NCBI GenBank assembly: GCA_022616085.1
Contig: JAKEFN010000096.1
Coordinates: 1 to 44,323 of the forward strand
Source: a bacterium
GTDB taxonomy: Bacteria; Patescibacteriota; Minisyncoccia; Phycocordibacterales; JAKEFN01
Direction of reading: 5' to 3'
Length of the DNA stretch: 44,323 nucleotides
A program made the position numbers and the translations under genes. Of the stretch, positions 25,002 to 44,179 are shown piece after piece. Numbering within the stretch: position 1 is the first letter of the stretch; each line of letters opens with the position of its first letter. Below the pieces are notes generated by a model. It had not been told where the DNA came from. It searched no databases and worked only from the letters and a program-made list of their open reading frames with translations.

Positions 25002-25026
25002 ACTCTAGACTTCGTAAGTCTAGAGT
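25002..25026. repeat. REP-like hairpin, inverted copy
   Basis: actctagactt-cgt-aagtctagagt. Confidence 0.85.
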
Positions 25027-25356: not shown

Positions 25357-25369
25357 TTGACTCCATCCT

Positions 25370-25582: not shown

Positions 25583-25619
25583 TTAGTCTAAATTGAAACC
25601 GATTCCATTAAAGATAGCG

Positions 25620-25949
25620 TTATCCTTTTGATCTGTCAATTTTTGCCGCTAGAATAAAATCGTTTTCGGAGAGACCGCCTATTGCGTGCGTTGAGAGAGA
25701 CAAACGCACTTTGTTCCAACCAAAAAGCAATATGTCGGGGTGGTGATTTTCGGATTCTGCGATTTCACCGACTTTGTTTACAAACGCGAGCGCGAGAGCA
25801 AAATCGGCAAACTTCCATTCGCGTTCAATCTTTGCGTTGTCAATTACGCGCCATTCGGGCGTTTCTTTTTTAAGTTCCTCTATTTCGCCGCGCGCAAGAG
25901 GCGGCACGCCCCCTTCGCACGGGACGCATTTTTTATTCGAAAGCGTCAT
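25620..25949 (-). CDS. phhB: Pterin-4-alpha-carbinolamine dehydratase (PCD/DCoH family)
   Basis: Conserved HHPD core (ESENHHPDILLFGWNKVRLSLSTHAIGGLSENDF). It is 109 aa. Confidence 0.9.
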   Translation of the reverse strand: MTLSNKKCVPCEGGVPPLARGEIEELKKETPEWRVIDNAKIEREWKFADFALALAFVNKVGEIAESENHHPDILLFGWNKVRLSLSTHAIGGLSENDFILAAKIDRSKG

Positions 25950-26095
25950 TTATTTTCTTCAAGCGTCGCTTCTACGGGCAAACGCTCGCTATATTCGTAT
26001 AAACTTGCAAAGAAAACTCCGGCAATGCCGATCATAATGATGCCGACAAAATTCAAAATAAACTTAAAGAGATTGTCGTTGAATAAAGGCCTCAT
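25946..26095 (-). CDS. Possible 49-aa membrane peptide translationally coupled to the PCD gene
   Basis: Hand translation gives MRPLFNDNLFKFILNFVGIIMIGIAGVFFASLYEYSERLPVEATLEENK. There is an ATGA overlap with the PCD start. Confidence 0.4.
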   Translation of the reverse strand: MRPLFNDNLFKFILNFVGIIMIGIAGVFFASLYEYSERLPVEATLEENK

Positions 26096-26206: not shown

Positions 26207-29200
26207 TCATTTTTTTGCAACCAAATGAAGCAGTATGCTCTTCCCCCCGACTTCCGCTTTTTCGCCTTTCTCCAAATCGACAAAGCGCATATCCGAAAGC
26301 CCTGCGGCTTTTTTGAGATACTCCAAAGAATCCGCCAAATCCTCTTCGACAGTGCGGCTTATTTCGAGAACGGCGCGGTCGGACGGCGCAAGCGCCGCAA
26401 TCTTCCGAAGCCCTTGTATGCTCCGGAGTATTTCTCTCAAATCTCCTTCTTTTTTGAGCGCCGGCGTAATTTCGGTGTCAAGCGTTACCTCCGCCGCATC
26501 GCCGAAACGGGCATCCTTCACATTCACCTCGTCGAGCACGACCTCGATAGTATTCGGAAGACTCCATGCGTTCGGGATCGTTACCTTTCCGAGCGGCTGT
26601 CTCACGCGAATGCCCGCGCGGCTCCGCTTCTCGAGGATGACATTCACGGCATCGCGCGCACGGCCCATCTCCGCGATAATTTTTTCTTCATGTCCGGAAA
26701 AATCCTCGCTCCACCATTCTGCGAGGTGAACGCTCTCGGGATCGCTCTCGCCGCGAACCTCCCTGTATACGCGCTCGGCGATAAACGGCATGAAGGGGGC
26801 GATTATTTTTGAAAAATTCAAAAGAACGAAGCGGGTCGTTCGAAGAGCGCGGAGAGTGTCTTCGCGGTCGTCTCCTTTAAAGCGTTCGCGCGAACGGCGA
26901 AGATACCATGTGGAGAGGTCATCGATAAAAAGACCGATGGGGCGCACCGCCGCCTCGATATCATACGCGTCCATCTGTTCGGCTACACCGATCGAAAGTT
27001 CGCGGAGCCGCGCGAGAATCCACTGGTCGAGAACGTGCCCGCTCTCGCGCTCCGAATCCCCCACATCGAACGATCCCTTGTAAAGCATGTAAAAAGAAAG
27101 CACGTTATCAAGCCGAAGTATGTTTTTTTTATAAATCTCGTCGACTCCCTTTTCGGAAAAATGAAGGTCTTCTGATTTCATAATCGGAGAGGAGAAGAGA
27201 TAGAGCCGAAGGGCGTCAACGCCGTATGTGTCGATGAGAATGTTCGGATCGGGAAAATTCCCTTTTGATTTGGACATTTTTGCGCCGTCTTCGGCGAGAA
27301 CAGTGCCGGTCGTTACGATATTTTTGAATGGAATCTCATCAAACAAAATAACGGAAATAACGTGCGTATAATAAAACCATGTTCTCGTCTGGGCGATATA
27401 TTCAGCGACAAAATCCGCCGGAAAATTCCGCTTTTCAAATTCTTTCTTGTTCTCGAACGGATAGTGGAACTGCGCGAACGGCATGGAGCCTGATTCGAAC
27501 CAGCAGTCAACCACTTCGGAGATGCGCCGCATTACTCCGCCGCATCCTGCCGAATCGCAGGGCCAGACAAACGCATCAATATAGGGCCGATGGAGATCAA
27601 GCTCATAATTCCTATTATGAGGGAACGGCGCGTATTCGATCGCGCGGACGTCGGCGTTCCCAAAAATCGAGTATTTGCCTCCCCAAAGATCCGCCGCCGC
27701 GGAGTCGTCGAGTCCCCGCGCCGCCGCGAGAAGAAGCCCCATGGGCGCGTCATGCATGACAAAAAGAATGTTCTTTCCTTCATGGGAATCCTCAAAAGAA
27801 ACGAGAGCGTCGCCTATTCGTTTTTTTATGTCATGGTAGTCTTCGCCGCCGATTTTCTCGGTGAAGCGATCTTTTACCGATTTGAAATGCCGATGGTATT
27901 CGTCCACGGATTTCCCTTCGAATGTTCCGCCGGATACTTCGCGAATCCGATCATCTATATGAAGCGCGCTCTCCGGAAGGCCAAGCTCCTCGCGCATAAT
28001 CTCCGCAGTTTCCCGCGCCCGAAGAATCGGAGAGGAAACGATAAGATCAATTGCCGCCTCTTTCTTCAATTTCGATGCGGCGGATTTTGATTGATCCCGT
28101 CCCAAAGGCGTCAGATGATGAGCATCTTCTTGGAGGGTGCCGAGAGTGTTTTTTACATTATTTTCGGACTCGCCGTGCCGCATGGCGAAATATCTGTTCC
28201 GAGGCTTCACTCGCTTCTTTAGATCGTCAAGCGAACCCATGACTTCAATCGCGCCGCACGCAGAGCATTTCCAAAAAGGAAGCGGAGACGCCCAGAAACG
28301 ATTGCGGGAGATGTTCCAATCCGGCGCGCTTTCGACTATTTTTTTATATCGGCCCTCTTTCAAATGCTCCGGAATCCAGTTGATTTTTTCATTTGTTTTG
28401 AGGACGCGGTTCTTTATCGGATCGATTTTGATGAACCATGCCGGCAAGGCGTAATAGAGAAGCGGCGTTTCGCACCGAAAACAATGCGGGTATGAATGCT
28501 TGATTGTTTCTTTTGCAAAAAGCGCCCCGCGAACGGCGAGAGACCTAAGCATCTCTATATCGGCGGCTTTGTGATTGTCTTTCGGCTTCACCGGTATCCC
28601 TTGGAACAGTGGCTCTCCGGATACATCGGCAAAATTGTCTTTGAATTTTCCCTCGGGAGTCACGTGCCAAACGATCGGCAGATTTTCTTTCTTCGCGAGA
28701 CTCATATCATCCTCCCCGAACGCGGGAGCGATGTGGACGATTCCCGTTCCTTCATCCGTTGTTACGAAATCGGCGCCATACACCTTCCAGCCGTTCTCGC
28801 GGTTTTTCAAATTCTTTTCTTTCTCATAATAGCCAAAAAGCGGTTTATATTTTTTACCGATGAGGTCTCGACCGGAAAATTCATCCGTTATTGCTAATCT
28901 TATTTGTTTAAAAATAAACGCTCCGTCCCCCTCTCTGTATTTTTCATCATCCAGAATATTTTTTGCCACAATAACAAATTTTTCTTCCGATGAAACAAGA
29001 CCATGCGTATTCGATCCGGCAAAAACTTTCGCTTTCACATAAACAATCTCCGGATTCACCGCAAGCGCGGTATTCCCCGGCAATGTCCACGGAGTGGTCG
29101 TCCACGCAAGGAGATATGTCCCGGGCAGATCGGCAAGCTCAAACTTCACATACGCCGAAATGTCGCTTATATCCTTATAGCTTCCGTCCATCGCAATTTC

Positions 29201-29785
29201 CGCATTTGCAATAGGCGTCTCGCACCGCGGGCAATACGGAAGAACGCGCGTTCCTTCATAGATGAAACCTTTGCCCCAAATTTCTTTAAGCGCCCACCAG
29301 ACAGACTCGATAAACGTATTGTCCATCGTCTTGTATGATCCGTCAAAATCAACCCACCGCCCGATCCGCTCCACCGTTTTTTTCCATTCCGCGGCATAAG
29401 CAAGGACGGACCCGCGCGCGCGTTCATTGAATATATCCACCCCGAGTTTTTCTATCTCGCGCTTGCCCGAAATTTTCAAATCCTTTTCCACGATGTTCTC
29501 AATCGGAAGCCCGTGGCAATCCCATCCCCACACGCGCCGGACAGAACGCCCTTTCATGGTCTTGTAGCGCGGTATGGCGTCTTTAATGACGCTCGCAAGA
29601 ATATGTCCGTAATGCGGAAGACCGGTCGCAAATGGAGGGCCGTCGTAGAAAACAAAAGGCTTCCCGTCCTTCGTCTTTTCAAGCGTTTTTTCAAAAATCC
29701 CATTTCCGCGCCAAAAAGAGAGCGTTTCCTCCTCGCGAAGCGCCACAGCGGATTTTTTGGTTTTTTTTGCTTCATTTTCAGCCAT
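26207..29785 (-). CDS. ileS: Isoleucyl-tRNA synthetase with an internal histidine-phosphatase-like domain
   Basis: HIGH-type PHYGH, KMSKS, a CP1 editing region (TTTPWTLPGN) and a 1192-aa length. Residues ~529-722 (RYFAMRHGESENN...) look like a phosphoglycerate-mutase-family module. Confidence 0.93.
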   Translation of the reverse strand: MAENEAKKTKKSAVALREEETLSFWRGNGIFEKTLEKTKDGKPFVFYDGPPFATGLPHYGHILASVIKDAIPRYKTMKGRSVRRVWGWDCHGLPIENIVEKDLKISGKREIEKLGVDIFNERARGSVLAYAAEWKKTVERIGRWVDFDGSYKTMDNTFIESVWWALKEIWGKGFIYEGTRVLPYCPRCETPIANAEIAMDGSYKDISDISAYVKFELADLPGTYLLAWTTTPWTLPGNTALAVNPEIVYVKAKVFAGSNTHGLVSSEEKFVIVAKNILDDEKYREGDGAFIFKQIRLAITDEFSGRDLIGKKYKPLFGYYEKEKNLKNRENGWKVYGADFVTTDEGTGIVHIAPAFGEDDMSLAKKENLPIVWHVTPEGKFKDNFADVSGEPLFQGIPVKPKDNHKAADIEMLRSLAVRGALFAKETIKHSYPHCFRCETPLLYYALPAWFIKIDPIKNRVLKTNEKINWIPEHLKEGRYKKIVESAPDWNISRNRFWASPLPFWKCSACGAIEVMGSLDDLKKRVKPRNRYFAMRHGESENNVKNTLGTLQEDAHHLTPLGRDQSKSAASKLKKEAAIDLIVSSPILRARETAEIMREELGLPESALHIDDRIREVSGGTFEGKSVDEYHRHFKSVKDRFTEKIGGEDYHDIKKRIGDALVSFEDSHEGKNILFVMHDAPMGLLLAAARGLDDSAAADLWGGKYSIFGNADVRAIEYAPFPHNRNYELDLHRPYIDAFVWPCDSAGCGGVMRRISEVVDCWFESGSMPFAQFHYPFENKKEFEKRNFPADFVAEYIAQTRTWFYYTHVISVILFDEIPFKNIVTTGTVLAEDGAKMSKSKGNFPDPNILIDTYGVDALRLYLFSSPIMKSEDLHFSEKGVDEIYKKNILRLDNVLSFYMLYKGSFDVGDSERESGHVLDQWILARLRELSIGVAEQMDAYDIEAAVRPIGLFIDDLSTWYLRRSRERFKGDDREDTLRALRTTRFVLLNFSKIIAPFMPFIAERVYREVRGESDPESVHLAEWWSEDFSGHEEKIIAEMGRARDAVNVILEKRSRAGIRVRQPLGKVTIPNAWSLPNTIEVVLDEVNVKDARFGDAAEVTLDTEITPALKKEGDLREILRSIQGLRKIAALAPSDRAVLEISRTVEEDLADSLEYLKKAAGLSDMRFVDLEKGEKAEVGGKSILLHLVAKK

Positions 29786-30960: not shown

Positions 30961-32283
30961 CTATTCCACAATCTGCAAATACGATAATGGATTTAGATAC
31001 CCGTTTTGCTTCGTGAGCACGGGGAGTTTTAACTCAGTTCCGCATACGCGGCTCTTGTATGCCGGCGCCGAGAGCCCCGCAACGCCGACCGCATCCGATG
31101 CGAATACGGTGAAATGAAGATGCGGACCCGTGGAATAACCCGTATTTCCAGTATATCCTATCGTCTCTCCGGCTGAAACAGTCTGCCCTTTCGAAGCCTT
31201 GATAAGCGAGAGATGCGCATAGAGAGTCGAAAGTCCGTTTGGATGTTCAATGAGCACCCATTTACCGTAGGATACGCCCCAGCATGCGACATCGGTGTCG
31301 CCCGTATCAACAATCATTCCCGATGCGGCGGCGAACGCCTCCGTGCCGGGAGGCGCGGAGAGATCAATGCCGTTATGCCCTTTTCCGTTATACACTTGGG
31401 GATTTTGCGTGGCGAAGGGGGTGTTACCGAAATACTGCGTGATGGTAACATCGCGGAGAGGCCAACGAAGCATCCCTTCTTGCGCCCCGGGCACAAGGCT
31501 CGGGTCGAGCACGGTCTTCAATTCCGCTTCAAACTCGCGAAGCTCCGCCTCAAGCGCCTCTTTCTTTTTCAGGCGGTCTGCAAGCTGTTCCTTGTATTCG
31601 GCCTCTTTGTTCTTGGTCTGCTTCAGAAGCTTTTCTTTTTCTTTCTTGTTGATCTCCGCAATTTGTTTTTTGTCGGAAAGCGAGCCCTTGAGCGTAACGA
31701 GTGAGCCAAGCTCCTGTTCCATATCTCCCTTATTCTCCACAAGTCCGTCTTTAAGCGACCGGAGTTCGGCAAGGCTTGCGCTCATGCTTGTCTGAAGCCG
31801 CCCTAAATTTTCGATGCTGTCCCAAAAATCGGCGATATTGTCGTATGACAAAACTATTTCGGCGAGGGACTGCGATTCTATTTCGTACATCTGCCGAAGA
31901 ATATTTCCGGTCGCGGACAAATTAAACGTGATGCCTTCTTCTTTCCTCCCGATCTCAAGAGAGAGACGCTCGACATTGAGGTTGGTGGTGCCGATTTTGT
32001 TTTCGGTGACGCGGATATCGCCTTCGATTTTCTTTCGGGACGAATCGATGGTCTTAATCGCGCCGGAAAGCGTATTAATCTCGGTCCCCGCTTTTTGTAT
32101 TTCTTTCTTATAGCCGCTGATCTCTTCCTCGATTTTCGAGAGTTCCTTGTTGCGCGCCTCGATATTTGACTTTATTTCGTCAACTCGCGCCGCGTGCGCA
32201 TAATCATAAAGAGAGGCGCACGCAAAAAATACAAAAATAAATGCGCCGACAGAAAAAAAAGTTTTCTTCATTTGAAAATTCAT
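30961..32283 (-). CDS. Secreted coiled-coil M23 family metallopeptidase (EnvC-like architecture)
   Basis: Signal peptide, a long coiled-coil, and a C-terminal region with HNGIDLSAPPGT and GPHLHFTVF. There is an ATGA overlap with the gltX stop. Confidence 0.9.
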   Translation of the reverse strand: MNFQMKKTFFSVGAFIFVFFACASLYDYAHAARVDEIKSNIEARNKELSKIEEEISGYKKEIQKAGTEINTLSGAIKTIDSSRKKIEGDIRVTENKIGTTNLNVERLSLEIGRKEEGITFNLSATGNILRQMYEIESQSLAEIVLSYDNIADFWDSIENLGRLQTSMSASLAELRSLKDGLVENKGDMEQELGSLVTLKGSLSDKKQIAEINKKEKEKLLKQTKNKEAEYKEQLADRLKKKEALEAELREFEAELKTVLDPSLVPGAQEGMLRWPLRDVTITQYFGNTPFATQNPQVYNGKGHNGIDLSAPPGTEAFAAASGMIVDTGDTDVACWGVSYGKWVLIEHPNGLSTLYAHLSLIKASKGQTVSAGETIGYTGNTGYSTGPHLHFTVFASDAVGVAGLSAPAYKSRVCGTELKLPVLTKQNGYLNPLSYLQIVE

Positions 32284-33638
32284 AGTTTTTTTTCAGCGAC
32301 CGCAAGGCGCCGGAGCGTCTCGTCCTTGCCGAAGAATGCCGCGAGCGTAAAGGGGTCGGGGGATTTTGGAAGTCCCGAAAGCGCGACGCGCATGGGCCAG
32401 AGGACGCTTCCTTTGCCCTTTTCTTCTGCAAACGGAAAAATTTTTTGTTTTATATATTCTTCCCCGAATTCCTCCGGCGGAATCTTGTCGAGCATGCCCG
32501 AAAGGGCTCGGAGAATCTCTCTTACCGAATCGGGATTGCCTTCTCCTTTCCAGAAAAGAGTCTCTTTCTCATAGAGAGGCTGTGAGAAAAAATACAAAAG
32601 CTCGCCGCGTTCCGCGAGTTCTCGAATATCGCCAAATGTGCTTATCCGTTCAAGAAGAAGGGGGCGAAGCTTATTTAACGTCTTCAGACTGTACCCTTCG
32701 GCATTTTTTATATCTTCAGGCATGAATCGCTCCGCATGCTCCGAAAAAACCACTTCCGACATTCGTTCAAGATATTCGCGGTTGATCCAGCGCAGTTTAT
32801 CCATGTTAAAAACAGCTCCTCCCTTTTGAACATCGGGGAGAGAAAATTGAGCGATGAGATCGCTCATGGAAAGAATCTCGCTCTCATCCTTCGGATGCCA
32901 CCCGAGAAGCGCGAGAAAATTCACGATCGCGGGCGCAACAAATCCCTTATCGCGGAATTCAAGAAGCGAGACCGCGCCATGGCGTTTGGAAAGCTTCGAA
33001 CGGTCGGGGGCGAGAATAAGCGGGATGTGCGCGTAGCGAGGCCGCGGCGCGCCGATCGCCTCCTGAATGAGAATTTGCCTTGGAGTATTCGAAATGCCGT
33101 CTTCGCCGCGAATAATATGCGTGACACCCATCTCAAAGTCGTCGACCACGACCGCAAGATGATAGAGCGGCGATTCAATATCCTTCGCTATCACAAAATC
33201 GCCAAGCTCGGAAACGTCAAATTCAATTTTCCCTCGGATAATATCTTCAAAAGAAATCTTTGTTTTCGGATTTTTGAATCTGATAACTTCACTCCGCTTG
33301 CCGTCTCTCCCGTCTTCTTTTGAAATGTATGCTGTGCCTTTTTCAATCATTTTTTCAATATGCCTTTGATAGAGCGCTGTCCGCTCCGACTGGCGGTAAT
33401 AAAATTCATCGTATTTTATCCCGAGCCATGAAAGCCCCTCAAAAATACTGTTTTCGTATTCTTTCTTCGAACGCTCGCGGTCGGTATCTTCAATGCGGAG
33501 AATCATGATCCCGCCGTTCTGCTTTGCAAATAAATAGTTGAAAAGCCCGGTGCGCGCCCCTCCGATGTGCAAAAATCCCGTCGGGGACGGTGCAAAGCGC
33601 GTTATGACTTTTTGTTGCTTTTGTGCGATGTTTTCCAT
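32280..33638 (-). CDS. gltX: Glutamyl-tRNA synthetase
   Basis: TRFAPSPTGFLHIGGART (HIGH) and KLSKRHG (KMSKS). The track start at 33644 is TTG; the ATG two codons in is preferred. Confidence 0.93.
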   Translation of the reverse strand: MENIAQKQQKVITRFAPSPTGFLHIGGARTGLFNYLFAKQNGGIMILRIEDTDRERSKKEYENSIFEGLSWLGIKYDEFYYRQSERTALYQRHIEKMIEKGTAYISKEDGRDGKRSEVIRFKNPKTKISFEDIIRGKIEFDVSELGDFVIAKDIESPLYHLAVVVDDFEMGVTHIIRGEDGISNTPRQILIQEAIGAPRPRYAHIPLILAPDRSKLSKRHGAVSLLEFRDKGFVAPAIVNFLALLGWHPKDESEILSMSDLIAQFSLPDVQKGGAVFNMDKLRWINREYLERMSEVVFSEHAERFMPEDIKNAEGYSLKTLNKLRPLLLERISTFGDIRELAERGELLYFFSQPLYEKETLFWKGEGNPDSVREILRALSGMLDKIPPEEFGEEYIKQKIFPFAEEKGKGSVLWPMRVALSGLPKSPDPFTLAAFFGKDETLRRLAVAEKKL

Positions 33639-33924
33639 ATCCAATAAGCGCGACCGGCGGCGCGTATAAAATTATACCACAGGTTTCAGAAGTCCCGGAC
33701 GATTAAAAAGTTTATAATAGAGCCCTATGTACGCCGCCTCTGCACCTCCCATACATAATAATAATTATTGGGGGAATGCACCCCACACGGATTAAGCCGG
33801 TCAAAAGATAAATCCCCCTCCGATTCTTCCTCTCCAAGATGTCTCCACACGACCGGCATAAGTTCCCTATAAAACCACCCCCATTCTATGACGGTTTTGC
33901 CGACATCTTTTTATTTTATCTTCC

Positions 33925-34296
33925 TTAATCCTCGTGCTTCACCGCGATAGCAAGAATCTCCTTGGCGATTTTTTCGGCGGCATTGGCACTCTGAGCATCA
34001 ACTAAAATAAGACCCTTGCCGTCAAACGCCTGAAAACGACCAGTCTCCGAGGACGAAATAATAACGGCTTTCCCCGAAAAAAATCCCTCATTTTCGTGGA
34101 AAACCTTTAGCGTATCTTCTTCCAGTACATCATCAATTACGATTGCTCCGAAATCATTATTGTGCGCGTTCAATGTTCCTTTGCGAAGAGAACCAAAATG
34201 CGCAACCGATATCGACTCTGAACTGACGCGCTCCCGTATTTTTTCCACAAATTGAGCGTCCGGCGATACGATAAGTATTTTTTTTGTATCTGTCAT
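33925..34296 (-). CDS. Hypothetical receiver-domain-like protein with a C-terminal 18 aa copied from MurG
   Basis: KKILIVSPD...AIVIDDVLEED resembles a CheY-like fold (tentative). The last 18 aa, AAEKIAKEILAIAVKHED, equal the MurG C-terminus. Confidence 0.65.
   Translation of the reverse strand: MTDTKKILIVSPDAQFVEKIRERVSSESISVAHFGSLRKGTLNAHNNDFGAIVIDDVLEEDTLKVFHENEGFFSGKAVIISSSETGRFQAFDGKGLILVDAQSANAAEKIAKEILAIAVKHED
33927..33983. repeat. 57-bp direct repeat, copy 1 (duplicate of the murG 3' end)
   Basis: aatcctcgtgcttcaccgcgatagcaagaatctccttggcgattttttcggcggcat is identical to 35404-35460. Confidence 0.9.
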
Positions 34297-34305
34297 ATTC
34301 TTATT

Positions 34306-35385
34306 CTAATCGTTAAGCTCGGTCTCATCAAAATCCTCCTTTTTCTCTATGGTCATAAAACCCTGATTATCCTCCTCAAACCATGGACGGATGCTGAAAT
34401 CAATTTTACCCTCATCTTTCAAACGCTTAAGCTTGTGAACCTCGCGGCCGAGGAGAATTTTCATCGCTTCATATTGATTTTCGGCTTCCGGAACGATCTT
34501 CTTGAAATAATGATAATATTCTTCTCCATTAGGTATCCTCTCGCATGAAACCGCAAGGCGCGCGAGACCGCCTTTTGAGAGCGCGAGTACCGCATTCCGT
34601 AACGCAATATGTTGAAGAAAGTAATACCGAAAGGAAACATTTGAGGTAATAAGGTCAAACTGCCCCCTAAAATCGGCGGGAAGACGCTCTGATGCCATAT
34701 AATGGAATACATCAGGATTGAACATGCCGAGTTCCTGCTCCATCGTAACGCCGTGTGTCTCCAGATGCGGGTCAATGTCTTTCATATCTTGCAGGGCCTT
34801 TCCCATGCCGCAACCAAGGTCTAAAACTTTCAAAAACTCCTTTCCCGTAGCATTCCTTATATCTCTCAGAATTTCCTTAAAATCCCCTTCACGCCCGAAA
34901 TAATGCCCAACAAGGTCCCTATTGCCGTATCCCGCCCATCCGTGTCTTTCGTATGTCGACCCGTTATCATAGAGCTGGATGCAGCGCATTTCATTGCACA
35001 ACTCCGGATTGAAAAAAATATCCAATTTTTCTTGTGCGGATAATTTTACTCCATTTTTGTCTTTAACGTCTCCATATATAAGTCGTCCATCATCGGTAAA
35101 AACATCGCCGCAAAATAGTCTTAAGTCTTGGTGATTAACCGCGAATGTCAATCTCTTGAGTATAACCCCTCTCAAAAGTTTTTCTTGTTCCGTATCAAGC
35201 GGCGTAAGCGGCTCAAAGCTAAAAAACTCCCGGTCAACGATTTTCTCAATTTCTTCTCGTGGCATCTCCTGAAAATCGCCTGACAGAAGCCCGTCAATAA
35301 AATGCGGATACATAAACATCCGTTCTTTCAGTTCTTCAACAGTGCCATCAAAATTCTCGTTTTTTGCCTCTTGGATCTCTATCAT
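34306..35385 (-). CDS. Class I SAM-dependent methyltransferase with an unknown N-terminal domain
   Basis: Motif I VLDLGCGMGKAL. It is 359 aa and more AT-rich than its neighbours by eye. Confidence 0.8.
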   Translation of the reverse strand: MIEIQEAKNENFDGTVEELKERMFMYPHFIDGLLSGDFQEMPREEIEKIVDREFFSFEPLTPLDTEQEKLLRGVILKRLTFAVNHQDLRLFCGDVFTDDGRLIYGDVKDKNGVKLSAQEKLDIFFNPELCNEMRCIQLYDNGSTYERHGWAGYGNRDLVGHYFGREGDFKEILRDIRNATGKEFLKVLDLGCGMGKALQDMKDIDPHLETHGVTMEQELGMFNPDVFHYMASERLPADFRGQFDLITSNVSFRYYFLQHIALRNAVLALSKGGLARLAVSCERIPNGEEYYHYFKKIVPEAENQYEAMKILLGREVHKLKRLKDEGKIDFSIRPWFEEDNQGFMTIEKKEDFDETELND

Positions 35386-35401
35386 CTTAATTTTTGATTT
35401 C

Positions 35402-36529
35402 TCAATCCTCGTGCTTCACCGCGATAGCAAGAATCTCCTTGGCGATTTTTTCGGCGGCATCGGTGTGCCCGAAGGCGCGCGCGGCTACACTCATTTTTTG
35501 AAACTCTATGGGATTCTTGAATAAGCGGTCTATTTCGGAGATCAAAACATGCGGGGTCAAATTCTCTTCCTCTATCACAATCGCACCCCCCTCCCGCGCA
35601 TAATTATACGCGTTGGTTACCTGATCGCGGCTGATCTCTCTGTGTATCGGTATGATAATGGCCGGTATTCCCCAAACGGCAATCTCAAAAAGCGTCGAAC
35701 CACCGCGCGTGATAATAATATTCGCAATGCCCGCCGCCATGCGAAGAGCCAAGTCGTCTAGATATCCAAACGGCTTATAGCGATGCGCGAATTCGCTTCG
35801 TTCAAGCGCAACCGCCGCCGTGCCTTTAACCTCTTCTATATTTTTTTCGCCGGTCTGATGCACGACTTGATAACGCTTCAAGAGTTCGGGAAGCGTGTCA
35901 AGAATGGCGTCGTTGACGCGCTCCGCTCCTTGCGAACCGCCGAGCACCAGCAAAACGGGGATATCCGCTTCGAGCTTAAGATACTCATGCGCTCCTTCTT
36001 TTATGGGATGCATAACTTCAGATCTTATGGGATTGCCCGTATAGGCGACTTTTTCACTCGGAAAGCGTTTTGCCGCCTCGGGATATGAAACGGCAATCCG
36101 CTTGGCGAATTCGGCCGCCCATAGATTGACGCGCCCGGGAACGGAATCGGATTCGTGAATGAGCACCGGGATTTTGAGAAGCCGCGCGGCGACAAGCGTC
36201 GGGAAGCTCGCGTAGCCTCCCTTCCCCACAACAATATCGGGATACACGTTGTAGAGCTTTACGATCGCTACAAAAATACCGAAAATTGTTTTGAATATAT
36301 CCGGAACATTTTTAAAGGAAAAATATATACGCGCTTTCCCCGCAGGAACCCATTCATATGTTATGTCATGCTTATACAAAAGACCCTCGTCATAGAGCGA
36401 ATCGGAAAAAAAATAAAGATGCACGCCGATGAGGCTTTTTTTGTCGGATTCTTTGTAAAGAGCCTCGGCGATCGCAATAATCGGATAAAAATGACCGCCG
36501 GAGCCGCCGGTTGTAAAAACAATCTTCAT
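35402..36529 (-). CDS. murG: UDP-N-acetylglucosamine--N-acetylmuramyl-(pentapeptide) pyrophosphoryl-undecaprenol GlcNAc transferase
   Basis: MKIVFTTGGSGGHFYPIIAIAEAL and the GT28 architecture. It is 375 aa. Confidence 0.95.
   Translation of the reverse strand: MKIVFTTGGSGGHFYPIIAIAEALYKESDKKSLIGVHLYFFSDSLYDEGLLYKHDITYEWVPAGKARIYFSFKNVPDIFKTIFGIFVAIVKLYNVYPDIVVGKGGYASFPTLVAARLLKIPVLIHESDSVPGRVNLWAAEFAKRIAVSYPEAAKRFPSEKVAYTGNPIRSEVMHPIKEGAHEYLKLEADIPVLLVLGGSQGAERVNDAILDTLPELLKRYQVVHQTGEKNIEEVKGTAAVALERSEFAHRYKPFGYLDDLALRMAAGIANIIITRGGSTLFEIAVWGIPAIIIPIHREISRDQVTNAYNYAREGGAIVIEEENLTPHVLISEIDRLFKNPIEFQKMSVAARAFGHTDAAEKIAKEILAIAVKHED
35404..35460. repeat. 57-bp direct repeat, copy 2 (native murG 3' end)
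   Basis: Identical to 33927-33983. Confidence 0.9.
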
Positions 36530-38786: not shown

Positions 38787-40070
38787 TTAATGTACATATT
38801 TTGTTTTCGCTTCTATTCTCTCTTTTCCCATATCATGCTGGAGCGCCGCAGGGATGTTGATTGACCCATCCTCGTTCTGGTTGCACTCGAGGATGGACGC
38901 AAGAATGCGCGGGGTTGCGATTGCGGTATTATTGAGAGAATGAACGAAACGAATCTTGCCGTCTTTATCCTTATAGCGGATATTGAGGCGCCGCGTCTGA
39001 AAATCATGAAAATACGACGCGGAATGCGTTTCGCGATATTTCTTCTCTGAAGGAACCCATGCCTCAAGATCATATTTCTTCACCTGTCCGAGTCCGAGGT
39101 CCCCGCCGCAGTTTGCAACCACCCGATACGGAAGCCCGAGCTTCTGAACGATCCGCTCGGCGTTGGCGGTGAGGTCTTCATGGAACGATACGCTCGTTTC
39201 GTGGCTCGCTTCACAGAGAATAAGTTGTTCGAGCTTAAAAAATTCATGGACGCGTATAATGCCTTTGGTGTCTTTGCCATGGCTTCCCGCCTCGCGTCGA
39301 AAACAGGGCGAAAAGGCGATAAATTTTTTGGGAAGCTCGGGAGCGGCAAACACTTCGTCCATAAACATTCCCATGGTCGCGACTTCGCCTGTGCCAGCAA
39401 GGAAATCCCCATCTTGCGTTTTATACAAATCCTCCTCGCCTTGCGGAAGATACCCCGTGCCGAGAAAAACTTCTTTCTTAACAAGAGATGGCACAATGAG
39501 AGGAATAAAGCCGTCCTTCACGAATTCACGAAGCGTCATATTCCAGATGGCGAAAGAGAGAAGCGCCGCATCATTCTTCAAAAAGTATCCGCGGAAACCG
39601 GAGACTTTCGCTCCGCGTTCAAAGTCGGCAAGATCAAGATCCTGCATAAGCTCGATATGGCTCTTGGGCGTGAACGAAAAATCGGGAATGTCGCCCCACG
39701 CGCGCACTTCCTTATTGTCCTCATCGTTCTCCCCTTCAGGCACGGACATATCGGGAATATTCGGAACTGAAAGAAGAAGCTTCTGCCAATGAACCATGAC
39801 GCCGCGAAGCTCTTCTTCTTTCTTTTGAAGATCGCGTTTAAGGGATTGCATTTCGGCGATGAGAGAAGTCCGAAGCTCTGGTCCCGCCACTCCTGCGATT
39901 TTTTCGCTCGTTTTGTTCTGCCGCTCCCGCATGCTTTCCACCATGGAAAGAAGCTCCCGCCGTCGAAGATCGATTGCAATAAGCTCGTCTACGTCAAAAG
40001 AAAGCCGTTTCTTCCGTGCCGCTTCTTTGATTAAATCGGGGTTTTCCTGTATAAACTTTATATCTAACAT
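38787..40070 (-). CDS. serS: Seryl-tRNA synthetase
   Basis: MLDIKFIQENPDLIKEAARKK leads into an N-terminal coiled-coil. Class II motifs are present (FRREAGS, TAIATPR). The ATG at M9 of the track ORF is preferred. Confidence 0.93.
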   Translation of the reverse strand: MLDIKFIQENPDLIKEAARKKRLSFDVDELIAIDLRRRELLSMVESMRERQNKTSEKIAGVAGPELRTSLIAEMQSLKRDLQKKEEELRGVMVHWQKLLLSVPNIPDMSVPEGENDEDNKEVRAWGDIPDFSFTPKSHIELMQDLDLADFERGAKVSGFRGYFLKNDAALLSFAIWNMTLREFVKDGFIPLIVPSLVKKEVFLGTGYLPQGEEDLYKTQDGDFLAGTGEVATMGMFMDEVFAAPELPKKFIAFSPCFRREAGSHGKDTKGIIRVHEFFKLEQLILCEASHETSVSFHEDLTANAERIVQKLGLPYRVVANCGGDLGLGQVKKYDLEAWVPSEKKYRETHSASYFHDFQTRRLNIRYKDKDGKIRFVHSLNNTAIATPRILASILECNQNEDGSINIPAALQHDMGKERIEAKTKYVH

Positions 40071-40127
40071 AGTGAATACTGCTATATGTAACAATAATAT
40101 ATTATAAAATACATTTCCATGCCACTC

Positions 40128-40214
40128 CGCCCAAACTCAAAGTTCAAAGTTCAAAACTCAAAACTAAAACGCACACGCAGTTTTGACATTTGAGATTTGA
40201 ACTTTGAGTTTGGG
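40128..40214. repeat. 87-bp near-perfect hairpin of the CAAAACTCAAAA family
   Basis: The arms gcccaaactcaaagttcaaa...tttgaactttgagtttgggc lie between serS and dprA. Confidence 0.8.
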
Positions 40215-40233
40215 CATCCCGTGCTACAAAGCA

Positions 40234-41103
40234 ATGAATAACAAAATAATTTCAGAAAAAATCAGCACACTTTACCCAAAAGACTTTCCGAGATGCCTCA
40301 ACGAAATCCCCGATCCGCCGAAAAAGCTCTTCATGCGCGGCTCTCTCCCCTCGCCGGACACTCATATATTATGCGTTGTGGGTTCGCGGCAATGCTCGGA
40401 CTACGGCAAACGCGCGGCGGAGCGCCTTATCTCAAGTCTTCGCGGCAGAGACGTTGCCATTCTTTCGGGGCTCGCATACGGCATTGATGCGGTTGCGCAC
40501 AGGACCGCACTTGAAGCAGGTCTCAAAACAATCGCCGTGCCAGGGTCGGGCCTCAATCCGAGCGTAATATATCCCTCCGCGCATCGCGTCATCGCCGAAA
40601 AGATAGTGGAAGCCGGCGGCGCGCTTCTCTCCGAATACGAGCCCGATTTCAAAGCAACGCCGTGGAGCTTCCCGCAAAGGAATAGAATCATGGCGGGGCT
40701 TTCGCGAAGCGTCCTTATTGTTGAAGCTAGTGAAAAATCAGGCTCGCTCATCACCGCGCGACTCGCGATGGACTACAACCGCGATGTCTATGCGGTGCCC
40801 GGGCATATTTTTTCAAAAACGGCCGCCGGAACGAATAAGCTCATCAAAGACGGCGCAACGCCGGTCATCTCGGCAGAAGAATTTCTGATTGACCTTGGAT
40901 TTGCGCCCGACGAAAAAACAGACAAAAACCTTGATCTCTCGCCGGAAGAATTACGTATCTACGAACTGCTTGCCGAACCGCTCTCTCGCGACGATCTTGC
41001 GGATCGTGCAAAAATTCCCATTGCCGAGCTCAATATCCTTCTTTCCTCGCTTGAGTTAAAAGGTTCGGTCGCTGAATATTCCGGCAAGATTGCGCGCGTA
41101 TAA
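40234..41103 (+). CDS. dprA: DNA processing protein DprA (Smf)
   Basis: GSRQCSDYGKRAA...LSGLAYGIDAVAHR...RNRIMAGLS...KSGSLITA. The ATG at M11 of the track ORF is preferred because the TTG start lies inside the hairpin. Confidence 0.9.
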   Translation: MNNKIISEKISTLYPKDFPRCLNEIPDPPKKLFMRGSLPSPDTHILCVVGSRQCSDYGKRAAERLISSLRGRDVAILSGLAYGIDAVAHRTALEAGLKTIAVPGSGLNPSVIYPSAHRVIAEKIVEAGGALLSEYEPDFKATPWSFPQRNRIMAGLSRSVLIVEASEKSGSLITARLAMDYNRDVYAVPGHIFSKTAAGTNKLIKDGATPVISAEEFLIDLGFAPDEKTDKNLDLSPEELRIYELLAEPLSRDDLADRAKIPIAELNILLSSLELKGSVAEYSGKIARV

Positions 41104-41154
41104 ATTTTCTCCACTATTGCAAAAAATATTATTATATAGTATTTAGTTACAACT

Positions 41155-43353
41155 ATGAAGTTGGTTATTGTCGAGTCGCCGTCAAAATCAAAAACGATTT
41201 CGAAATATCTGGGTCCCGGATATACGGTCAAAGCGAGCGTCGGACACGTGCGCGACCTTCCGAAATCAAACAAAAAAGCCATTGATATAGATGGCGGTTT
41301 TGTGCCGCACTATGAAATATCAAAAGGCAAAGAAAAAGTGATTGCCGAACTCGCCTCACTCGCAAAGAAGTCCGATGAAATAATCCTCGCAACCGACCCC
41401 GACCGCGAGGGCGAAGCGATCGCGTGGCACATAGCCGACGCCATAGGCGTCGGAAGTCAAAACTCAAAAGTCAAAACTCAAAAGCTGAAAAGGATTGTTT
41501 TCCATGAAATCACAAAAGATGCGGTGCAAGAAGCGCTTGCGCATCCGCGAGCCATCGATGAAGACCTCCGACGAGCGCAGGAGGCGCGCAGGGTGCTTGA
41601 CCGGCTTGTCGGATACGATCTCTCGGAGCTTATCTGGAAAAAAGTGCGCTACGGGCTCTCTGCCGGAAGGGTTCAGTCTCCCGCGCTTCGGATACTTGTT
41701 GAGCGCGAGCGTGAAATAAAAGCGTTCAAGCCGGAAATCTATTTTGTCATTACTGCAAACGCCAAAAATGAAAAAGGCGAGAATTTTCTCCTCACGTGCG
41801 GAGAACAGCCGAAATCGCGCGGGGAAGCCGATCGGATAGAAAAAATTGCGCGGGAGAATGAATGGCGCATCAAAGACGTGAAAGAATCCGAAGCGAAACG
41901 CGCCCCATACGCGCCGTTTTCGACTTCAACGCTCCAGCAGGCGGCAAGCTCGCGGCTCGGGCTTTCCCCTTCAAACACGATGCGCATCGCCCAAAAACTC
42001 TACGAAGCGGGGCTTATTACCTACATGCGCACAGACAGCGCGAACATCGGAAAAGACGCTCTCTCGAAAATTCATGCGCTCGTCAAAAAAGAATACGGAG
42101 AAAATTTCCTTGAGCCGAGAATATACAAGACAATGGCAAAAAACGCGCAGGAAGCGCACGAAGCGATCCGTCCCGCGGATATTTCACGCATGGAAGCGGG
42201 CGCGGCGGCAGACCAAAAAAAACTCTACCGCCTTATTTGGCGGAGAACGGTCGCGTCGCAGATGGCTGATGCAAAAATGAAAAAAATGAAAATAACGGCG
42301 AACGTATCCGGAGACAGCATTCCCGATTTTTCCGCAACCGGCTCGCGCATCGTCTTTGACGGATGGTTTGCGGCTGATCCCGAATCGCGCGGGAAAGAAA
42401 ATGAGCTTCCAAAAGTTGCTATAAATGAAAAAATCATGCTCATAGACATACAGTCTGAAGAAAAAGCGACCGAACCCCCTCCGCGCTATTCGGAAGCGGG
42501 GCTTGTCAAAGAACTCGAGAAACGCGGCATCGGTCGGCCCTCCACCTACGCTTCGATCATAAAAACAATCCAAGACCGCGGCTACGTGGAGAAAGAAGGC
42601 CGTGCGCTCCGGCCCACCGACACAGGTGAAGTGGTGAGCGGATTTCTTGAGAAGCATTTCGGGCATATCATAAGCGACACATTCACCGCAGAGATGGAGA
42701 ACGAGCTTGATGAGATTTCCCGCGGGGAACGGAAGTATGCCAAAACGCTCAAAGAATTTTACACCCCGTTCCGTAAGCTCGTGGAATCAAAGGAGAATAT
42801 AGAAAAACTCACAAGTCTCGGCGATGCTCCGACAGAATTCAAGTGCCCCGTCTGCGGCGGCGCAATGGAGATGAAGCTTGGCAAAAGCGGCGTTTTTATG
42901 AGCTGTAAGAAATATCCCGAATGTGTCGGAGCACGGACAAGAGAAGGAGAAGCAATGAAAGGCCCGGAAGAAACCGGCGAAGACTGCCCCGAATGCGGAG
43001 GAAAACTGGTGATGCGTGCCGGAAAATATGGATCTTTCGTCTCCTGCGGCAACTATCCCAAATGCAAATTTATTAAAAAAGACGAAAAAGAAGAAGAAAA
43101 AAGAAAAACGGGAGTCGCGTGTCCTCTCTGCAATAAGGGAGAAATGATGGAGCGGCGCGGGCGATTCGGCATCTTTTACGGATGCTCAAATTATCCCGCG
43201 TGCAAGAATGCCATAAAAGCAAAACCGACCGGCAGACTGTGTCCCGATTGCGGAACGCTAATGATGGAAGGAACAAAAACCATTCCCGAGCGCTGTTCCG
43301 ACAAAACCTGCCCGAATCATAATCCGCATAAAAAACATAATTCATCGGCTTGA
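41155..43353 (+). CDS. topA: DNA topoisomerase I
   Basis: A TOPRIM N-terminus (MKLVIVESPSKSKTISKYLG, DPDREGEAIAWH), the catalytic region (ITYMRTDS) and four C-terminal C4 zinc-ribbon repeats. Confidence 0.95.
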   Translation: MKLVIVESPSKSKTISKYLGPGYTVKASVGHVRDLPKSNKKAIDIDGGFVPHYEISKGKEKVIAELASLAKKSDEIILATDPDREGEAIAWHIADAIGVGSQNSKVKTQKLKRIVFHEITKDAVQEALAHPRAIDEDLRRAQEARRVLDRLVGYDLSELIWKKVRYGLSAGRVQSPALRILVEREREIKAFKPEIYFVITANAKNEKGENFLLTCGEQPKSRGEADRIEKIARENEWRIKDVKESEAKRAPYAPFSTSTLQQAASSRLGLSPSNTMRIAQKLYEAGLITYMRTDSANIGKDALSKIHALVKKEYGENFLEPRIYKTMAKNAQEAHEAIRPADISRMEAGAAADQKKLYRLIWRRTVASQMADAKMKKMKITANVSGDSIPDFSATGSRIVFDGWFAADPESRGKENELPKVAINEKIMLIDIQSEEKATEPPPRYSEAGLVKELEKRGIGRPSTYASIIKTIQDRGYVEKEGRALRPTDTGEVVSGFLEKHFGHIISDTFTAEMENELDEISRGERKYAKTLKEFYTPFRKLVESKENIEKLTSLGDAPTEFKCPVCGGAMEMKLGKSGVFMSCKKYPECVGARTREGEAMKGPEETGEDCPECGGKLVMRAGKYGSFVSCGNYPKCKFIKKDEKEEEKRKTGVACPLCNKGEMMERRGRFGIFYGCSNYPACKNAIKAKPTGRLCPDCGTLMMEGTKTIPERCSDKTCPNHNPHKKHNSSA
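41456..41484 (+). repeat. Tandem 14-nt gtcaaaactcaaaa x2 inside topA
   Basis: It encodes SQNSKVKTQK in the TOPRIM loop. A 24-nt stretch is identical to the reverse complement of ~5331-5354. Confidence 0.75.
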
Positions 43354-43444
43354 TTAATTGACAGTCGTCCAAAATCATATATTCTGTTCAAAGATCTGGC
43401 CTTTATGGTCGGAAATTTGGAAAACGCTTCGGAGGAGGAATCCA

Positions 43445-44179
43445 ATGAAACCTTTAGAAAAGTATTTCCCGTTATACCTTGCTTCTGCGGCGGCCGTTTT
43501 TCCTTTCATCTTCCTTCTTTACGAAGAAGTGAAGATAAACAACGTGATTCTCTGCGCTTCGGGATGGGCGCTTATGGCGTTTATTTTTGCACGAGTGGTG
43601 GCAGTCGGCCACACGGCATTTAGCCGTTATTTTTCAGAATTCGTGGTGAGCTTCTCTGTCTTGTTTTTCGGCGGACTCCTTATAGGGTTCGAAGGTGCGC
43701 GGGTATTGCCGGGGTATGCATGGTTCGCGACATTCGCGGCTGTATATTACATCTTAACCTCGCGCGGGCCTCGCGTGCCGGAAAATACCGTTTTCCTTAC
43801 CGGCGCGCGCGCATATCGAACCGGCGAGCGGTATCCTCTCAAATTTTTCACCATGAACGAATCCCCGCTTGTATTACGATCCGGACCAAAAGAGACAATA
43901 AAAACCGACGATTTATCATACAGTTCGGACGGCGAAGAATGGAGACAAGCCGAATCAATCGTTACGTGGAGAATAGAGTCCCTCAACTCGAAAGCGGATT
44001 ACGAATCAATAAAAAAGGCCTACCGTTCCGCGATTGGAGATGCGGTTTTGACGATGAAATCAAGAGAAGATATGAATGAAGCCGCTGAAGTTTTTCAAAA
44101 ATTAGAAAATAATTTCAGCCCGAAGATACACATAAAAGAACTGCGATTTAGGATACAAAAAAAGCAGGCAGTGTCCTGA
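43445..44179 (+). CDS. Hypothetical membrane protein (244 aa)
   Basis: A GGAGGAGG RBS lies 6 nt upstream of the ATG at M30 of the track ORF. About four TM helices are followed by a soluble C-terminal part. Confidence 0.7.
   Translation: MKPLEKYFPLYLASAAAVFPFIFLLYEEVKINNVILCASGWALMAFIFARVVAVGHTAFSRYFSEFVVSFSVLFFGGLLIGFEGARVLPGYAWFATFAAVYYILTSRGPRVPENTVFLTGARAYRTGERYPLKFFTMNESPLVLRSGPKETIKTDDLSYSSDGEEWRQAESIVTWRIESLNSKADYESIKKAYRSAIGDAVLTMKSREDMNEAAEVFQKLENNFSPKIHIKELRFRIQKKQAVS

Follow-up and report, generated by a model that had tools for sequence, protein, structure and literature searches.

A two-gene cassette encoding a predicted methyltransferase and a receiver-like protein between exact 57-bp copies of the murG 3′ end

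Insertion sequences of the IS1634/IS1549 type are autonomous, carry a transposase and inverted ends, and make long, variable target duplications of tens to hundreds of bp. Integration at gene ends is seen with e14 and phage 21 at icd and with SXT at prfC. The dusA-associated islands enter a protein-coding gene at its end and bring a replacement for that end (PMC4482086), and CIMEs, together with tandem accretion at att sites including a gene end, have been reviewed (PMC5704250). The microcin H47 island of E. coli, which lacks a recombinase, leaves the chromosome as a circle and returns via its flanking direct repeats, by host functions and in a RecA-independent manner (PMC5426353, PMC3191183). 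Tycheposons of Prochlorococcus target tRNA genes and carry tyrosine recombinases (bioRxiv 10.1101/2020.12.28.424599).

The locus described here lies in a window of 44,323 nucleotides (the whole stretch of DNA that was analysed) and was compared with that of a sibling strain, L001. The difference between the strains is genuine and recent, a small cassette without a recombinase having been gained or lost, and it does not amount to a new kind of system. The features of the window to which the text refers are the following.

24292-24987: Y1_Tnp (IS200-like) gene, the only transposase-like gene found in the window
32280-33644, minus strand: gltX, which lies next downstream whether the cassette is present or absent
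33645-33924, minus strand: native murG-gltX intergenic region of 280 nt, near-identical to that of L001
33925-34296, minus strand: chimeric ORF of 123 aa; residues 1-105 are a divergent receiver (CheY-like) body and residues 106-123 the MurG tail, predicted to form helix alpha5
33927-33983, minus strand: repeat copy B, the displaced murG tail in frame with the body of the 123-aa ORF; attR-like right boundary
33984-35403, minus strand: insert of 1,420 nt missing from L001; the blastn alignment of L001 with the window skips exactly the insert plus one repeat copy
34306-35385, minus strand: methyltransferase gene, 359 aa; the C-terminal ~190 residues have a predicted class I SAM-dependent methyltransferase fold and the N-terminal ~170 residues are a conserved domain
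35402-36529, minus strand: murG, 375 aa, intact, the last gene of the serS-mraY-ftsW-murG run (Pfam Glyco_transf_28, E 1e-29; Glyco_tran_28_C, E 3e-31)
35404-35460, minus strand: repeat copy A, inside murG, comprising its last 18 codons plus 2 nt and the first base of the stop; attL-like, the left boundary in gene direction

The segments 33927-33983 and 35404-35460 were found to be an exact direct repeat (57/57 nt) that does not extend by a single base on either side, and a chance 57-mer match within 44 kb is effectively impossible (~N^2/2 x 4^-57). The perfect 57-bp duplication around 1,420 bp claimed in an earlier note on this DNA was thus borne out, with sharp ends. Similarity beyond the repeat, suggested by a repeat finder (91% over 77 nt) and by the gapped extension of blastn, was rejected since 49% of shuffles scored equally. 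Two ORFs occupy the 1,420 nt between the copies, both on the minus strand like murG; the methyltransferase start follows the murG stop after 16 nt, and 9 nt separate the methyltransferase gene from the 123-aa ORF, in agreement with the packing of 9-16 nt given earlier. The repeat is made up of 2 nt of the preceding codon, 18 murG codons and the first T of the stop, and its earlier description as the last 54 nt plus the whole murG stop had to be corrected, as the first base of the stop alone is included. The stop of murG is now TGA (35402-35404), which arose at the insert junction with GA contributed by the insert, and the stop of the 123-aa ORF is TAA (33925-33927), i.e., the murG stop of L001. 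The claim that this ORF ends with the final 18 residues of MurG (AAEKIAKEILAIAVKHED) and uses its stop therefore held for the residues and for the original TAA, but not for a stop still shared with murG. After copy B come this TAA and the intergenic sequence that lies after murG in L001. The methyltransferase leader, which adjoins the murG tail, includes the sequence GAGAAATC. A protein-level search found no other duplicated gene termini in the window.

The MurG protein was identical in the window, in L001 and in L002, which is the L001 strain assembled a second time. Its 375 aa include the two GT28 domains and the C-terminal helix, and in an alignment with E. coli MurG (1F0K) the tail falls on DATERVANEVSRVA; the duplication does preserve murG integrity, as had been proposed. 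In the murG-gltX intergenic region there is a terminator-like hairpin at 33769-33785 and, before gltX, a motif resembling TGnTATAAT at 33671-33681; Rfam yielded nothing for the region at E up to 10, and its folding was no better than that of shuffles. Because the hairpin sits in this region, the insert is placed between murG and its likely terminator, and its two genes would thus be co-transcribed with mraY-ftsW-murG. An exact-protein look-up returned no database record for either GltX or the 123-aa ORF of the window.

Related genomes had been named as the place to look for an empty site, and an exact one was found in strain L001 (~99.5-99.8% identical), which reads murG-TAA-intergenic-gltX with one repeat copy and the same 280-nt intergenic region. 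At this empty site the single repeat copy is flanked as copy A is on its left and as copy B is on its right. Only 12 substitutions in ~5 kb upstream separate L001 from the window (~0.25% divergence), and the two strains make a natural before/after pair that differs by a 1.4-kb two-gene insertion in an essential cell-wall operon, with the operon undamaged. The pair illustrates how single cassettes can come and go at gene ends in streamlined genomes with no apparent classical machinery for mobile elements. In L002 (1 difference from L001 in ~4.9 kb) the contig ends on the last base of the repeat and gltX lies on a separate contig, which points to an assembly-graph branch exactly at the insert boundary. 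A MurG scan of species-representative genomes gave only 27-30% identical proteins from unrelated phyla, and no outgroup with this locus. As to polarity, a gain here is proposed as more probable than a loss in the sibling.

The composition of the insert is foreign to its surroundings. Its genes have a GC of 0.43-0.44 and a GC3 of 0.39-0.46, against means of 0.493 and 0.550 for the 35 other genes (z -1.7 to -2.8), in line with the AT-richness relative to the flanks remarked on earlier; they are the lowest in the window, the IS200-like gene alone being lower, and this was counted in favour of the integration of a foreign cassette. Together with the empty site, the deviant composition supports the insertion of foreign DNA at the murG 3′ end that the earlier note had proposed, whether Campbell-type or by long duplication.

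The 359-aa protein is supported as a class I SAM-dependent methyltransferase, predicted from its fold and its glycine-rich motif I. This SAM-binding motif, VLDLGCGMGK, is invariant across the methyltransferase family. An AlphaFold model was obtained at pLDDT 88.6, and Foldseek retrieved generic small-molecule methyltransferases at TM ~0.3; over 280 methyltransferases of the PDB were matched at E ≤ 1e-3. Pfam methyltransferase families gave sub-cut-off matches only (best E 5e-4, 20.2 bits against a cut-off of 27); with the model and the Foldseek result, these matches are consistent with the SAM-methyltransferase proposed before. No curated subfamily giving a substrate was reached (Pfam below cut-off; NCBIfam, PADLOC and PHROGs with weak generic matches), and the last three yielded a usable assignment for neither the methyltransferase nor the 123-aa ORF. 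Searches with the N-terminal 170 residues gave no recognised relatives.

The 123-aa ORF had been called receiver-like, and this description stood. It shares 30% identity with a 116-aa ORF that follows the closest methyltransferase homologue, and a profile of five small ORFs reached CheY and other receivers in PDB sequences at E 1.4e-7 and PF00072 proteins at E 3.5e-5 (large database). The predicted fold agrees: the model (pLDDT 78) matched receivers in Foldseek at TM 0.65-0.70, receivers having been in the alignment used for the model. PF00072 searched against the 123-aa ORF alone gave no match at E up to 1. With regard to the receiver catalytic residues, SPD replaces the acidic pair and there is no conserved Lys, and Asp55 aligns at the acceptor position; the ORF is best called a divergent or pseudo-receiver. 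A phmmer match of protein P0036 to this ORF was spurious, being an LVIVD beta-propeller. The in-frame fusion begins exactly at the start of the predicted helix alpha5. The locus illustrates how a displaced gene end can be reused as the final helix of an incoming protein. The suggestion that the shared tail serves as a common interaction peptide found no support; the tail is the canonical last helix of MurG and stands at the receiver alpha5 position. The function of the gene pair would probably be signal-linked methylation, and the cargo, a rare conserved methyltransferase with a degenerate receiver, may represent an uncharacterised signalling or modification module.

Only 14 homologues of the methyltransferase were found among 5.8 billion proteins, and no other assembly of the protein database holds it at an identity of at least 90%. 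A metagenome scan added one further partial locus, and viral contigs, plasmids and phages gave no relatives. The location of the cassette family is variable: the neighbourhood of the methyltransferase differs at each of ~10 loci, and a receiver-like ORF follows it in five distinct arrangements (the window, L003, L006, L013-L016 and L017). The rarity of the family, its different neighbourhoods and its recurrent partner were all counted for cassette integration.

In L003, an unrelated genome, the two genes recur between copies of the trpS 5′ end that make up a 41-nt repeat (39/41 identical, 32 nt exact), and a third trpS 5′ fragment, 78% identical, precedes a hicB gene. The differences between the L003 copies are synonymous or conservative, which fits copies arriving on incoming DNA and not staggered-cut fill-in. 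Both times the identity block ends at a gene boundary, at the first stop base in the window and at the start codon in L003. The 57-nt and 41-nt repeats have no common core, and a single dedicated site-specific recombinase is therefore not supported. The cassette ends also differ between the window and L003, lying 18 versus 1 nt before the methyltransferase start, and inside the receiver ORF versus 16 nt past it. Flanking repeats were found at only two of the ~10 cassette loci. A candidate repeat flanking the methyltransferase in L004 (25 nt, 80%) was rejected, its score of 25 comparing with a shuffle maximum of 24. The trpS case suggests a recurring process, which could be searched for via short duplicated gene termini around AT-rich genes.

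The insert was also searched for mobility functions. No terminal inverted repeats pair its ends and no end hairpins were found; its 1,420 nt are taken up by the intact methyltransferase gene and the intact receiver-like ORF, with no transposase, no tyrosine or serine recombinase and no remnant of a mobility gene. Recombinase families were absent from 33 further ORFs upstream of the locus (147-30971), a scan that stopped short of the three ORFs at 40204-44179. IntI and attI were not found in the scanned part of the window, the neighbours of the locus being murG and gltX. The repeat contains no attC-like hairpin, and its folding as single-stranded DNA gave z -0.09 and +0.49 on the two strands.

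With moderate confidence, we consider that a two-gene foreign cassette was integrated at the murG end by a Campbell-type crossover with a small circle. The circle would have measured 1,477 bp and shared a 57-bp stretch, base for base, with the murG 3′ end, and a single reciprocal crossover between it and the chromosome would leave one 57-bp copy on each side. The left copy would complete murG, with the new TGA completed by the opening bases of the insert; the right copy, lying before the old TAA, the terminator and the gltX promoter, would close the frame of the receiver-like ORF and give it its last helix. Precise excision via the same 57-bp repeats would regenerate the empty site of the sibling. 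As the cassette encodes no recombinase, the crossover would fall to repeat recombination of the host, homologous or RecA-independent, or to a site-specific recombinase encoded elsewhere.

The exact, sharp-ended repeat argues for Campbell-type integration, as do the flanks of L001, which match the prediction of reciprocal recombination within the repeat. The break of the L002 contig at the insert boundary, the bounding of the L003 pair by a trpS repeat, the identity blocks that stop at gene boundaries, and the absence of inverted ends, transposase and hairpin were counted on the same side, and the documented recombinase-less, repeat-driven islands such as H47 (PMC5426353) may lend it support by analogy. 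Counted against it were the failure to find an integrase in the part of the window that was scanned, the lack of a common core between the 57-nt and 41-nt repeats, and the presence of repeats at only two of the loci. Furthermore, 57 bp is short for efficient RecA-dependent integration, and the model presupposes a chimeric donor, or imprecise excision at some earlier time, to put the 57 bp of murG on the circle.

Between a Campbell-type crossover and a staggered-cut duplication of the target site, we lean towards the former. The latter would have nicks 57 nt apart, a linear fragment ligated or transposed in, and gap filling, with the fusion and the TGA as tolerated accidents, and IS1634/IS1549-type elements offer a precedent for target duplications of such length. 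Perfect copies, sharp boundaries and the lack of significant similarity outside them are in keeping with it, and so are the cassette ends that are not conserved between the window and L003, as arbitrary fragments predict. We nevertheless regard it as rather unlikely: terminal inverted repeats, an insert transposase and end hairpins are all missing, random nicks would rarely put the block edge at a gene boundary in both cases, the L003 copies differ synonymously as if they came from different alleles, and the fusion is in frame from the exact start of helix alpha5.

Reversing the polarity leads to an unlikely reading as well. Here the cassette would be the older state, the 57-nt copy would have been made by ectopic conversion or duplication, and the sibling would have lost the cassette by recombination between the repeats. 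Deletion between the 57-nt direct repeats does yield exactly the L001 sequence, RecA-independent deletion at short repeats is documented (PMC5426353), and at ~0.25% divergence a perfect 57-nt repeat is uninformative on age. The deviant GC3, however, argues against a long residence, the methyltransferase is confined to this assembly at the 90% level given above, and the second repeat-bounded case, L003, argues that the duplication comes with the insertion; moreover, an event creating the repeat is still required.

It is very unlikely that the arrangement is an effect of assembly, in which the chromosome would have the empty site and the cassette, present on a separate molecule (e.g., an excised circle) or in another strain, would have been threaded in by the assembler. 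In the assembly graph, a loop via the shared 57-mer looks no different from an integrated copy, and L002 does break at the repeat. Yet an assembler can produce the two junctions, from murG tail to methyltransferase leader and from receiver body to murG tail, only if real molecules contain them, a 1.48-kb circle without a replication gene implies an integrated source, and 57 nt is no standard k-mer overlap; the chimeric ORF and the murG-identical segment would be real even so.

Mobilisation as an integron-type cassette, or in the IS200/IS605 (HUH) manner by the Y1 transposase at 24292-24987, was disfavoured by the tests and is scarcely credible: the insert is cassette-sized, promoterless, co-oriented with its neighbours and free of a recombinase of its own, and a Y1_Tnp gene does occur in the window, but the repeat has no attC-like hairpin (z near 0), IntI and attI were not found in the scanned part of the window, and the IS200/IS605 family makes no target duplication and needs subterminal hairpins, which are absent here.

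Beyond the Campbell-type event itself, a broader idea is offered tentatively, and we hold it to be quite unlikely: the methyltransferase and receiver-like pair may form a cassette dedicated to mobility in bacteria with small genomes (probably Patescibacteria-like). It would move between the termini of housekeeping genes, independently of a recombinase or by a trans-acting mechanism, and would bring along or create a copy of the target end each time. If this were true, the far copy could enter the cargo protein, as with the alpha5 swap here, and there would be an integron-like cassette economy with gene ends as attachment sites.

When set beside the known systems, the insert resembles IS1634/IS1549-type elements in the direct duplication at the insertion point and differs from them in having neither transposase nor inverted ends. 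Like integron cassettes it is ~1 kb in size, promoterless, co-oriented, tightly packed, without its own recombinase and with a presumed circular intermediate; unlike them it has no attC hairpin, no IntI or attI that could be found and no array, and its boundary repeat is the end of a host gene. The H47 island is likewise small, without a recombinase and flanked by direct repeats, but it measures 13 kb, its repeats are long, imperfect and outside genes, and its excision was demonstrated experimentally, whereas excision of the cassette is a prediction. With gene-end islands and prophages the locus shares the extreme end of a housekeeping gene as target, a gene kept intact via the carried copy and a displaced partial copy on the far side. 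Such islands have their own tyrosine integrase, span 10-100 kb and usually bring a replacement end that is not identical; here the copies are identical, the insert has no integrase, and a cargo ORF runs in frame into the displaced copy. Of the marks of an integrase-encoding element, the gene-end direct repeats and an unoccupied attB in a related genome were found, and a recombinase inside was not. Tycheposons differ in their target, as the insert sits at a protein-coding gene end, and in their recombinase, which the insert lacks; they are similar as cargo elements of streamlined genomes that are flanked by partial target copies, with repeated integrations pushing older ones inward. CIMEs are decayed ICEs/IMEs of several kb, usually with remnants, in contrast to the 1.42 kb with two intact cargo genes and no remnants seen here; the ORFs scanned include no cognate integrase, and the host bacterium probably has an ultra-small genome. 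The likeness to CIMEs lies in attL/attR-like repeats that are kept around an insert free of mobility genes, and the likeness to accretion lies in L003, which is stacked as gene-end copy, cassette, gene-end copy, cassette and intact gene.

An exact direct repeat of 57 nt (33927-33983 and 35404-35460) was found in the window and could not be extended by one base on either side, which bears out the repeat that the earlier note had placed at the murG end. The genes around it, in the direction of transcription, were as follows:

38787-40094, minus strand, serS
between serS and murG, minus strand, mraY and ftsW
35402-36529, minus strand, murG
34306-35385, minus strand, 359-aa ORF (methyltransferase)
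33925-34296, minus strand, 123-aa ORF (receiver-like)
280 nt between the 123-aa ORF and gltX, intergenic region
32280-33644, minus strand, gltX
after gltX, minus strand, M23 peptidase gene

The packing was tight, as had been described, with 16 nt between murG and the 359-aa ORF and 9 nt between the 359-aa and 123-aa ORFs. The repeat consisted of the 2 final bases of a codon, 18 full codons and the first T of a stop; its previous description as 54 nt plus the stop was right for the 18 codons (54 nt) and wrong for the stop, which shares only that T. The murG stop was TGA, its GA being contributed by the first bases of the insert, and that of the 123-aa ORF was TAA. A repeat-finder similarity running past the 57 nt (91% over 77 nt) was not above shuffled sequence and was rejected; the repeat is a 57-mer with sharp boundaries. 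When a second duplicated gene end was searched for in the window at protein level, that of murG proved to be the only one.

The insert is foreign by composition. Its two genes had a GC of 0.43-0.44 and a GC3 of 0.39 and 0.46, below the means of the 35 other window genes (GC 0.493, sd 0.033; GC3 0.550, sd 0.055), in agreement with the AT-richness noticed before, and only the IS200-like gene at 24292-24987 was lower. A hairpin resembling a terminator (33769-33785) lay on the far side of the insert from murG, and a TGnTATAAT-like motif for gltX (33671-33681) was located downstream of the insert. Since the insert precedes the hairpin, it would be transcribed together with mraY-ftsW-murG.

The identical MurG protein was on record on two further contigs, L001 (Logan assembly of SRR29686276, 8.9 kb) and L002 (GCA_022616485.1). 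Between window positions 40405 and 30063, L001 was colinear except that 33984-35403 and one repeat copy were missing; its murG ended with TAA, followed by the same intergenic region and then gltX, thus providing the empty site. The two contigs showed one difference in about 4.9 kb and 12 positions in 5 kb set both apart from the window; judged by sequence, they come from the same strain. L002 ended at the final base of the repeat, and gltX of GCA_022616485.1 was found on another contig with a distant accession number; because L002 ends exactly there, we infer an assembly-graph branch at the insert boundary. Two strains about 0.25% apart are therefore filled in one case and empty, at least in the majority, in the other, and the polymorphism is very probably a genuine insertion/deletion of a foreign cassette. 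The earlier observation was correct overall and its interpretation is supported. At its other end, L002 1-100 matched neither the window (about 40380-40405) nor L001, all three agreeing downstream, which reflects, upstream of serS, either another structural difference or a contig end that is chimeric.

The 359-aa protein matched no Pfam family at cut-off, and PADLOC, NCBIfam and PHROGs gave no usable assignment. Its weak Pfam matches, to a number of class I methyltransferase families, lay around the invariant motif VLDLGCGMGK. In the predicted model (pLDDT 88.6, 13-sequence alignment) the C-terminal ~190 residues matched, at low TM-score, hundreds of SAM-dependent methyltransferases, most of which act on small molecules, and the conserved N-terminal ~170 residues gave no match. 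Motif and fold agree with the initial methyltransferase call.

For the 123-aa ORF no direct homologue was obtained by word search or phmmer, the lone phmmer match, a beta-propeller, being spurious. It shared 30% identity over 113 residues with the 116-aa ORF behind the closest methyltransferase homologue (L006). A profile built from five such small ORFs alone matched CheY and other receiver domains (E 1.4e-7, PDB sequences) and PF00072 proteins (E 3.5e-5, full database). The AlphaFold model showed a (beta-alpha)5 fold (pLDDT 78; the input alignment included receivers) resembling the receivers of HP1043, FrzS and PmrA (TM 0.63-0.70), so the receiver-like label holds. The acidic pair and lysine of true receivers were absent; the ORF is a divergent or pseudo-receiver.

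The 18 shared residues form the canonical C-terminal helix of MurG, aligning with DATERVANEVSRVA of E. coli MurG 1F0K; nothing pointed to the common interaction peptide once suggested for them. In the model this tail starts at the start of receiver helix alpha5 (residues 106-120 helical) and replaces the native last helix of homologues, e.g. SNIHEVISALLK and DINKIVERIKTL; the ORF is thus a true chimera with a swapped helix.

A search of 5.8 billion proteins returned only 14 other members of the methyltransferase family (38-53% identity), and none was found on viral contigs, plasmids or phages. The neighbourhood differed at every locus recovered, further loci showing still other contexts:

L006, methyltransferase after ftsH
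L012, methyltransferase between a pyrD-like gene and glmS
L003, methyltransferase before trpS
L017, methyltransferase near a histidine-kinase fragment
L008, methyltransferase adjoining ribosomal protein genes

The receiver-like ORF followed the methyltransferase in the window, L003, L006, L013-L016 and L017. In L017 (1-2712, GCA_041643135.1) a DUF5676 gene and the C-terminal fragment of a histidine kinase lay immediately upstream of the pair, which hints at a link between the module and two-component signalling.

At L003 the pair was bounded by a 41-nt repeat of the first trpS codons (39/41 identical, 32 nt exact), and the trpS 5′ end was present in three copies (L003 5224-7580, GCA_964605615.1):

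just upstream of the pair, before hicB, longer 78%-identical trpS 5′ fragment (24 or more codons, in-frame stop)
immediately ahead of the methyltransferase start, 41-nt trpS copy
7539, real trpS start

Because these copies differed synonymously or conservatively (CGT/CGC, ATC/ATA; K/R, I/V, A/S), their sequences suggest an origin from other functional trpS alleles and not in situ. The inserted genes were again AT-rich (GC 0.29-0.35 vs flanks 0.40-0.42). No flanking repeats were found at the other methyltransferase loci, that of L004 not being significant, so the window and L003 are the only two repeat-bounded instances. Should recurrent repeat-bounded insertion of the gene pair prove to be a dedicated mobility system, the case would gain in interest.

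Neither inverted repeats at the insert ends, nor hairpin folding of the 57-nt repeat, nor a core common to the window and L003 repeats was detected. No integrase family was matched in 33 further window ORFs (147-30971; three ORFs at 40204-44179 fell outside the scan), and the sole mobility gene among those scanned was the IS200-like Y1 transposase, a family that makes no duplications. This 231-aa ORF (24292-24987, minus strand; PF01797, E 6e-7) was the most AT-rich gene in the window (GC 0.36), inside a patch of low GC (24001-26000) that also held several small ORFs without a family.

Other features were observed in the window. A 169-nt element occurred in two copies, 89% identical, at 6504-6672 just after leuS and at 10994-11162 upstream of ychF; inverted repeats of some 19 nt (CTTTGAATTACGAAACTAA ... 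TTAGTTCCGTAATTCAAAG) form its termini, no Rfam match was obtained at gathering score, and it looks like a MITE, a palindrome-associated element or a structured RNA. At 16988-17363, two tandem units of 144 nt, 87% identical, came after tRNA-Leu (16988-17071), and each closed with a copy of the tRNA's last 22-25 nt (17195-17219, 17339-17363); they resemble remnants of stacked att sites or decayed copies of the tRNA. An A-rich periodic motif of CAAAAC/CAAAGC repeats (intergenic at 5243-5287, 40132-40176 and 41452-41496; copies 62-76% identical) may be associated with promoters or represent curved DNA. The 1,192-aa IleRS-like class I tRNA synthetase (26207-29785, minus strand) carried a histidine-phosphatase domain (PF00300, E 8e-32, residues 534-699) that appears inserted between the two halves of its catalytic domain, and a 372-aa protein (5358-6476, minus strand) combined sigma-70 region 4 with a HARE-HTH domain, an unusual architecture for a sigma-like factor.

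The empty allele held one repeat copy and the filled allele two flanking ones, with the flanks exchanged as a reciprocal crossover expects. This arrangement is what would result if a circle of 1,477 bp that bore the 57 bp recombined once, reciprocally, with the chromosome; the same crossover reversed would excise the cassette. Either the host, by homologous or by RecA-independent recombination between repeats (the latter demonstrated for the H47 island, which lacks a recombinase; PMC5426353), or a recombinase encoded elsewhere could have carried out the crossover. Insertion of foreign DNA, proposed earlier as either Campbell-type or long-duplication, agrees with the empty site and the deviant GC, and we lean, with moderate confidence, towards the Campbell-type mechanism. 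A long target duplication by staggered cut is unlikely, since both repeat-bounded cases have an identity block that stops at the gene boundary, the copies at L003 resemble different alleles, and the window ORF is fused in frame where a helix starts. The reverse polarity, in which the sibling strain lost the cassette, is quite improbable, and an assembly loop very much so; integron or HUH mobilisation can practically be dismissed.

Among known systems, dusA islands, which integrate at a protein-coding gene end and replace it (PMC4482086), CIMEs and accretion arrays of IMEs (PMC5704250), and partial-tRNA-flanked tycheposons (bioRxiv 10.1101/2020.12.28.424599) work alike. The cassette encodes no recombinase and so does not belong to the integrase-bearing classes; it is not an integron cassette, having neither attC nor IntI, and not an IS, having neither inverted ends nor a transposase. 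It formally fits the definition of a CIME, but is only 1.42 kb long and lacks remnants of a larger element. It is a mini-cassette that has no recombinase and is bounded by repeats at a gene end; the in-frame reuse of the displaced end is unusual.
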